Shown: piece by piece, positions 27,880 through 28,641 of the stretch
Layout: every line of letters begins with the position of its first letter
Numbering within the stretch: position 1 is the stretch's first letter
Source: Pecten maximus
Taxonomy: Eukaryota
Length of the DNA stretch: 64,000 nucleotides
Assembly (NCBI RefSeq): GCF_902652985.1
Contig: NW_022983091.1
Location: 1-64,000, forward strand
Direction of reading: 5' to 3'
Notes under the pieces: model-generated
Told to the model about the DNA's origin: nothing
What the model saw: only the letters and a program-made list of their open reading frames with translations
The model's database searches: none
Position numbers and translations under genes: made by a program

Positions 27880-28028
27880 AGATTACTTTTGGTCTGGTTC
27901 CTCAACTTTGACCTCTCTGACATGGTTTCACCTAACAAGAACTTATAAAGCTCTGGCCAGCAAAGCCCAAAGTTTCATTGAAACACTCAAGCTTCCGGAC
28001 CACGGCAAGGTAGTAATCCTCCCGGAAG
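27880..28028 (-). ncRNA. HDV-like self-cleaving ribozyme at the LINE 5' end
   Basis: P1 CUUCCGG/CCGGAAG; P2 GAUUACU/AGUAAUC; P3 ACC/GGU; L3 UUGCCGU; long P4; J4/2 GACCAAA. The first P1 nucleotide abuts the TSD. Confidence 0.82.
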
Positions 28029-28641
28029 TATTAAGCAATCCGACAATTCAACAGGACTGCTGGAGATAAAATGTCCCTATGTTCTCAAGAATTTTCATCC
28101 TAAAAATGCAGGAAAAGAGCTTTCTACTAAACAGAAAAATAACTTCTGTTGTAATTGCCTTGACGATGGAACATTAGCATTAAAGAGATCCCACAGTTAT
28201 TATTACCAAGTACAAATGCAACTGCATATATGTGAAAAACCATTTTGTGACTTTGTAGTGTGGTCTCCTCTTGGTATGTCTGTAGAAAGAATTTTTCCTG
28301 ACCACACCATTGCAGGCATTTCACAAACATTATTTGGTACCAGAATTTTTCCTCAAACGAATTCCGAGGGAGCTCAAACCAATAAAATTTCAATCATAAT
28401 TAGTCCATTTTCCATCTTGTGGACTCTATCTGTACGTTGAGATTTTATCTGTATGTTGATATTTGTTGCAGGTTTTTTGTTTGATATTGAATAATGTGGA
28501 TATATATGTGTGAAATCCACATGTAATTAAATAATTGAACAAAAAACACTTGTATTTACATGTACGGGTATGCAGGTACATGTGTATACAATACCGGTAC
28601 ATGTTGCTTATTATAATAACAGTTATAGGTACTGTGTACTA

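Follow-up and report, generated by a model that had tools for sequence, protein, structure and literature searches.

We predict, with considerable confidence, that the 149-nt head of a scallop LINE (28028-27880 on the minus strand of the window, by which we mean the whole 64-kb stretch of DNA analysed here) is an HDV-like ribozyme that likely cuts just before C28028, and that it opens a two-ORF element likely to belong to the Nimb clade. If this is true, Nimb joins the LINE clades that make their own 5' end by self-cleavage. Behind this head lie two structured domains of the 5' UTR that have no match in Rfam and that appear, from sequence comparison, to be what is new here beside the ribozyme itself.

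The element and its insertion site

The LINE is 5,933 bp long, and its first base is also the first base of helix P1 (Table 1). The earlier note on this DNA had claimed that this base directly abuts an 11-bp target-site duplication (TSD), and an exact duplicate was indeed found: the string at 28039-28029, adjoining 28028, recurs at 22095-22085, and these are its only two exact matches in the window. The TSD interrupts one YqaJ-type frame, the left flank ending in SPDGIIKQ and the right starting with IKQ and continuing to LLEIKCPY. Because the flanks are consecutive parts of a single frame with duplicated residues at the break, the TSD and both ends of the element are exact.

The frame thus interrupted (window 21900-22095 and 28029-28440, plus strand), in which the LINE lies antisense, is of nuclease type and probably belongs to a DNA transposon. 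At 59-64 kb (59393-63884) there are also an HTH_Tnp_4 frame and a second frame of YqaJ-PHD type. By Pfam matches the window is dense in mobile elements, with a protease-RT-RNase H-integrase LTR retrotransposon at 33410-36816 (plus strand), a DUF5641/integrase fragment at 6556-7389 (minus strand) and a tyrosine recombinase at 54890-55636 (plus strand). Pfam also identifies an A32/AAA-type ATPase and an endonuclease VII at 9936-15384 (plus strand), a region that we take to be Polinton-like.

Table 1. Features of the LINE, its head and its insertion site, in window coordinates
Feature	Position	Strand	Basis and remarks
TSD, 5' copy, 11 bp	28029..28039	-	Exact match to 22085-22095; interrupts YqaJ-type ORF
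HDV-like ribozyme, predicted	27880..28028	-	Predicted cut between 28029 and 28028; pairings, descriptors, family start site
P1, 5' strand	28022..28028	-	+1 is C28028; 28028-28022 pairs with 27998-27992; 7 Watson-Crick pairs, C-G first
P2 5' strand, P3 and L3	27999..28019	-	P2 28019-28012 with 27887-27880, 8 pairs including one G.U; P3 ACC/GGU, 28011-28009 with 28001-27999, 3 pairs; L3 UUGCCGU, 28008-28002, with U, C and G where the published descriptor has them
P1.1 partner and long P4 domain	27893..27991	-	C27991 able to pair with G28006, third base of L3 (1 bp); pairing; P4 stability not above shuffles
J4/2 and P2 3' strand	27880..27892	-	P2 3' strand 27887-27880; likely catalytic C27892, alternative C27891
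5' UTR domain 1, multi-helix	27686..27859	-	Covariation; model R1; possible pseudoknot of first loop with 3' end
5' UTR domain 2, just before ORF1 AUG	27497..27602	-	Limits approximate; covariation, fixed spacing
ORF1, gag-like, three Cys/His knuckles	25999..27480	-	Broken in window copy; intact in L040, L046
ORF2, APE endonuclease-RT-RNase H	22351..25996	-	3' limit approximate; several frameshifts; Pfam on pieces and on intact L040
3' UTR; terminal motif like a stem-loop, (CAAA)n tail	22096..22350	-	By eye, resembles one of two bivalve I/Nimb tails (PMC11481361, supplement 4)
TSD, 3' copy	22085..22095	-	Exact match to 5' copy

The window copy carries many indels and is 95.6% identical to copy L040. 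It is dead in both ORFs, but its ribozyme core is the core of intact copies. Among nine copies that we translated, two (L040 and L046) retain an ORF1 of ~499 aa and an ORF2 of 1,222 aa, in which Pfam identifies APE, RT and RNase H.

The ORF1 knuckles, the RNase H and perhaps the 3' tail make it likely that the element belongs to Nimb, within the I superfamily. Like the Nimb LINEs already described (Limi of the locust, PMC3391268; those of bivalves, PMC10294476 and PMC11481361), it has two ORFs, three Cys/His knuckles in ORF1, the APE-RT-RNase H order in ORF2 and a length near their ~5.8-6 kb. The third knuckle is nearly identical to that published for Limi (PMC3391268), and the 3' end, compared by eye, looks like that given for the I/Nimb element S.constricta_0 and unlike that of T.granosa_0 (PMC11481361, supplement 4). 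There was no clade-named reference among the best 120 RT matches, and the nearest named ORF1 proteins are those of scallops (Pecten maximus, 93%; Mizuhopecten yessoensis, ~60%). Animal Ingi elements are not known to have such an ORF1. Martelossi 2023 gives no I-superfamily clades for molluscs other than Nimb and Ingi, save for an octopus clade listed as unknown.

A predicted nested double pseudoknot at the head

Every pairing of the scheme drawn up in the earlier note (P1, P2, P3, L3, a 1-bp P1.1, a long P4 and J4/2) is present in the minus strand, and together they make a complete nested double pseudoknot. J1/2 measures 2 nt, the P4 region ~98 nt, and J4/2 reads GACCAAA. These are the features by which HDV-like ribozymes have been recognized (a P1 of 6-7 bp, a P2 of at least 5, a P3 of 3, P1.1 and an optional P4; PMC6326823, PMC3774820), and the conserved U, C and G of L3 (reverse wobble) are found as U28008, C28004 and G28003. 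The head departs from the canonical form in two places: its first pair is C-G where G1-Y is usual, and its P1.1 is a single G-C pair where two C-G pairs are usual. L1TcRz, which cleaves at C1 with a 1-bp P1.1, is reported to be active despite the same departure from the canonical descriptor (PMC3185411).

A catalytic C followed by N-R-A can be read in J4/2 in two registers, and the CRRA register, as published, would fit C27891 as well. Because the first C of the J4/2 string is kept in all six older or diverged copies and the second is replaced by A in each of them, C27892 is the more likely catalytic base.

Two strict descriptors, run over both strands of the 64-kb window, returned this head as their sole match; a looser scorer gave it 23.4 and gave 20.3 to each of two unrelated sites. 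A degenerate pattern for other heads with this P3, run genome-wide, had no match, but it is too tight to fit even the present family, so that its zero carries no weight. The stability of P4 and of the whole nested fold is like that of shuffles (z about -1), and none of the Rfam ribozyme models matched the window sequence at E <= 10. Covariation within the family is weak, with 3 of 19 pairs changed on both sides, as happens in 20 of 500 shuffles; one older copy (L033) has two compensatory changes in P1. In a pseudoknot-free ensemble P2 forms (0.82-0.93) whereas P1 (0.03) and P3 (0.00) do not, values that are partly to be expected of a model that cannot form pseudoknots, although misfolding is possible. 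The contigs of four runs cover the sequence up to the element start, with loose ends at 28023, 28028 and 28029, but since contigs of any repeat give such ends, we do not count them as evidence on cleavage.

A second UUGCCGU loop (~27848) was considered as a second HDV core and ruled out, as it is part of a covarying hairpin of 6-7 bp in 5' UTR domain 1; an early HDV-core match in relative L107 was this same hairpin.

One start site in independent copies

A DNA search for the family gave at least 46 matches (40 of 110 candidates scored). Twenty-nine matches, with none in the control, came from a 25-nt core pattern. Thirty loci were fetched, 28 of which include the head; leaving out six whose flank is shared with another locus, 22 independent copies remain, and 20 of these have the same +1 start bases, at the first base of P1. 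The two exceptions are a copy that is minus 4 nt at an internal duplication and a copy with a substitution. Upstream of this point the flanks (-12 to -1) are 26% identical, i.e., random. Full-length copies extending further 5' were what the earlier note had named as counting against a self-made 5' end; we looked for them across the family, and none of the copies compared extends beyond +1.

Fourteen young copies were fetched at length, and for 11 of them the 3' end falls within the fetched stretch. The TSD adjoins +1 in six of these 11 (once inside a microsatellite), two have two extra bases between TSD and +1, and for three no TSD was found. An untemplated extra G at the 5' junction can mark capped templates; where the TSD abuts, no copy of this family or of the sister family described below has one between TSD and +1.

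Five copies with one common flank (L020, L021 and L023-L025, at G000:C13:9252370-9567296) are, judged from that sequence, a segmental or tandem duplication and not separate insertions.

A sister family with an unrelated head

The same start rule can be followed in a second family of the same genome (G000), whose ORF1 is ~57% identical to that of the window family. The two families are 85-99% identical in ORF2 and the 3' end and ~81% identical in the UTR from element position 154, and the first 120 nt of the sister family give no blastn alignment to the window-family head. Those nucleotides nevertheless make a canonical HDV-like fold, with G1.U, a 6-bp P1, P3 GGG/CCC, L3 UCCACGU, a 2-bp P1.1 and the junction C-A-G-A-A, which, like J4/2 in the window family, is a 5-nt C-N-R-A-A. 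Twenty-two of 30 sister loci have this head and 15 of the 22 start at G+1; among 15 copies fetched at length, the TSD abuts G+1 in four of the 10 with a 3' end.

Each family starts at its own P1 base, although P1 is 7 bp in the one and 6 bp in the other. That two unrelated heads behave in this manner is as self-cleavage predicts, and unlike what a shared DNA promoter would give. For direct comparison, the same element background would offer two natural ribozymes, of which one is canonical and the other resembles that of L1Tc. Between L040 and the sister copies L162 and L163, identity is ~60-70% at the 5' end and climbs to 97-99% towards the 3' end, a gradient which suggests that 5' parts have repeatedly been replaced via template switching.

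Head types among more distant relatives

An ORF1 profile gave, out of 467 confirmed, 80 metagenome loci. A stricter descriptor had seven matches in upstream regions (58.8 kb), none in downstream regions (199.8 kb) and two on the reverse strand (277.7 kb). Of 39 loci, 34 carry 150 nt or more ahead of UTR domain 1 (the other five were left out as too short). Ten of these 34 reach an HDV-like score in the sequence upstream of ORF1, whereas in the controls none of 34 reversed and 1 of 340 shuffled sequences did so; the scorer was written after the sequences had been viewed, and several of the metagenome loci are closely related. The ten include a member of the window family and a locus (L095) with a doubtful J4/2; the 24 loci below the score include some with a different head and others that are cut or decayed.

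The scoring heads and that of the sister family comprise five different P3 sequences and three types of P1.1 pair; both the sister family and these outside relatives retain the HDV-like fold in different sequence. A single head, that of relative L127, is matched by the Rfam model HDV-F-prausnitzii, at 26.9 bits and below the cut-off. In L111:1-70, upstream of a related ORF1, the HDV-like head is minimal: P4 is nearly absent, only 9 nt separating P1 from the catalytic C.

Other relatives begin with further heads or with LP ('LINE promoter'), the head described in Matetovici 2016. On an ORF1 tree of 36 loci, whose head labels were given partly by eye, HDV heads require eight changes (six forced by strong branches), and LP heads, the alternative in eight of the 36 loci, require five (four forced). 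Because head types are mixed on this tree, heads look exchangeable. One locus labelled 'other' on the tree, L097, is probably a truncated HDV head.

Structured domains between the head and ORF1

In domain 1, 31 of 46 pairs are changed on both sides across 17 sequences, a level that none of 500 shuffles reached and that lies far above slid controls, although the structure was derived from the same 17-sequence alignment, a bias in its favour. Model R1, made from this domain, matches 41 of the 80 metagenome loci, always in the sense direction and upstream of ORF1, and among the 48 relatives that have 500 nt or more upstream, 40 carry the domain (15 of these being in the training set). Its folding energy alone is uninformative (z -0.5). 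A pseudoknot of the first loop with the 3' end is possible; it is almost invariant, three of its four pairs never varying, so that covariation speaks neither for nor against it.

Domain 2 closes 17-20 nt before the ORF1 AUG and has 13 of 18 pairs changed on both sides (28 sequences; 1 of 500 shuffles). Its core motif is present in 59 of 82 loci. An in-frame AUG close by and sufficient flank are found in 47 loci, and in 37 of these the motif ends 30-36 nt before that AUG, 25 of them at 33-34 nt. Other AUGs, from none to nine, lie between domain 1 and the ORF1 AUG. No Rfam family matched either domain, and over the window and most relatives Rfam gave neither an IRES nor a ribozyme.

The intact copy L040 has seven upstream AUGs in all, and domain 2 precedes the start codon by a fixed distance; from these two facts we suggest that ORF1 may be translated by internal initiation. 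Domains 1 and 2 together are a candidate IRES, with domain 2 supplying conserved structure at a fixed distance before the AUG, but they might alternatively be a protein-binding, export or stability element.

Discussion

The chain of events that best accommodates these observations would begin when a host or neighbouring transcript, or one from a weak internal promoter, reads into the element. P1, P1.1, P2 and P3 are predicted to form the nested double pseudoknot in this RNA, with C27892 in J4/2 as the general acid, and cleavage would leave an uncapped RNA with a 5'-OH. At the DNA level, full-length copies start at exactly C28028, beside the TSD. Known HDV chemistry (PMC6326823), together with the cases of L1Tc and R2, leads us to expect cleavage at +1, the 5'-OH RNA and its release from co-transcripts, and we consider self-cleavage of the head likely. 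ORF1 would then be translated by internal initiation on the two structured domains behind the head, the weaker step of the scheme.

A possible objection is that short complementary strings have merely come together by chance in this fold, and the folding energy, which is not above that of shuffles, and the two other window matches of the loose scorer could be read in this way. But chance would have to account for folds that coincide exactly with the start of the element in two families and for enrichment over reversed and shuffled controls, and the sister-family result refutes it unless both folds are inactive; we give it hardly any weight. It is also improbable, though not to the same degree, that an internal RNA polymerase II promoter starting at +1 sets the 5' end and that the HDV-like fold is vestigial or merely protective. 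Internal promoters have been reported for LINEs, the Drosophila I factor among them, Pr77 of L1Tc is described as both promoter and ribozyme (PMC3383444), and many relatives have no scoring HDV head. A promoter is, however, a DNA sequence, yet sister heads without alignable sequence keep their pairing; both families start at their own P1 base despite the difference in P1 length; and the junctions at which the TSD abuts have no extra G.

A third arrangement would combine the two functions, as in L1Tc: the head DNA would also be a promoter, and the ribozyme would just trim the 5' end. Such a dual system is compatible with self-cleavage as we propose it and differs in where transcription starts. 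Beside the L1Tc precedent, it gains from the fact that insertions fall at unrelated sites (antisense in a transposon ORF in the present case), at which read-through cannot be relied upon; set against this, head sequences are not conserved between the sister families, and we hold the dual system to be possible but somewhat unlikely.

Self-cleaving LINE heads have precedents. Kojima 2018 names six LINE clades with a 5' ribozyme, a list in which I and Nimb are absent. R1, LOA and Ingi are of the same I superfamily as Nimb, and the extension to Nimb is incremental: the ribozyme alone would be a further HDV-like LINE head, in a clade not yet on that list. The earlier note had believed such a 5' end to be less documented for this clade, and in agreement, among titles and the beginnings of abstracts on ribozymes in Nimb and other named clades and on HDV-like RNAs in non-LTR elements or molluscs, there was no report of such a 5' end for this clade. 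The term 'ribozyme' has no occurrence in the main text of the bivalve papers PMC10294476 and PMC11481361. The one paper found on Nimb together with ribozymes regards the LP head as a promoter, and for LINE IRESs and 5' UTR domains like those described here, titles and beginnings of abstracts gave none.

As described, L1TcRz/Pr77 of the Trypanosoma cruzi element L1Tc, of the Ingi clade (PMC3185411, PMC3383444, PMC4035085), resembles the scallop head in being an HDV-like fold that sits at +1 of a LINE whose copies are dispersed and flanked by TSDs, in having C as its first nucleotide and a single-pair P1.1, and in the IRES-like structure proposed downstream. At 77 nt it is much shorter than the 149 nt found here, which include the long P4, and unlike L1Tc, the scallop LINE is an animal two-ORF element with a gag-like ORF1, whose downstream domains are defined by covariation. 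The LINE 5' HDV-like ribozymes of the 2011 work, as related in later papers (PMC5786205, PMC6765202, PMC3774820), are similar in that the predicted cut site is the element's 5' end, and in their proposed release from co-transcripts and cap-independent translation. The present case differs from them in that Nimb/I is outside the six clades and in that its head types are interspersed over the ORF1 tree, with a constant structured UTR behind them.

In earlier work the role of IRES was proposed for the ribozyme itself. In the elements studied here the head varies and the downstream domains, one of them tied to the start codon, stay constant, which points to a separate structured initiation element. 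We raise, as a tentative proposal that may well prove too broad, a cap-free 5' cassette built of modules: an exchangeable self-cleaving head (several HDV-like forms, or LP as an undescribed class of ribozyme), followed by an undescribed two-domain class of IRES that would set the ribosome ~33 nt upstream of the ORF1 AUG and would be conserved among distant animal hosts. The question of how an uncapped LINE RNA with a 5'-OH gets translated becomes testable in this system.

The LP head, as described for Nimb-17_LMi, I-3_DR, RTE-9_CPB and the mollusc LP-SINEs (PMC4758252), is likewise a short 5' head, common to Nimb and RTE and independent of the remaining UTR, and its authors liken it to Pr77. 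We rejected the possibility that it is the HDV head of the present element: the LP sequence is different and did not fit the HDV descriptors. It has no match in Rfam, and by eye one can make out a hairpin on its 5' side, perhaps a pseudoknot, and a second stem-loop whose core is constant while the arms vary; we regard it as a candidate self-cleaving RNA. The LP head also begins the LINE relatives L082, L084, L088, L089, L113, L114 and L155, and occurs twice in L147. Three copies of this Nimb-17-like head lie in the window itself, all on the plus strand (2466-2560, 18750-18844 and 51263-51357), and are probably LP or MESC SINEs. Four further relatives (L102, L120, L132 and L092) have, upstream of UTR domain 1, heads that are neither HDV-like nor LP and that look structured by eye.
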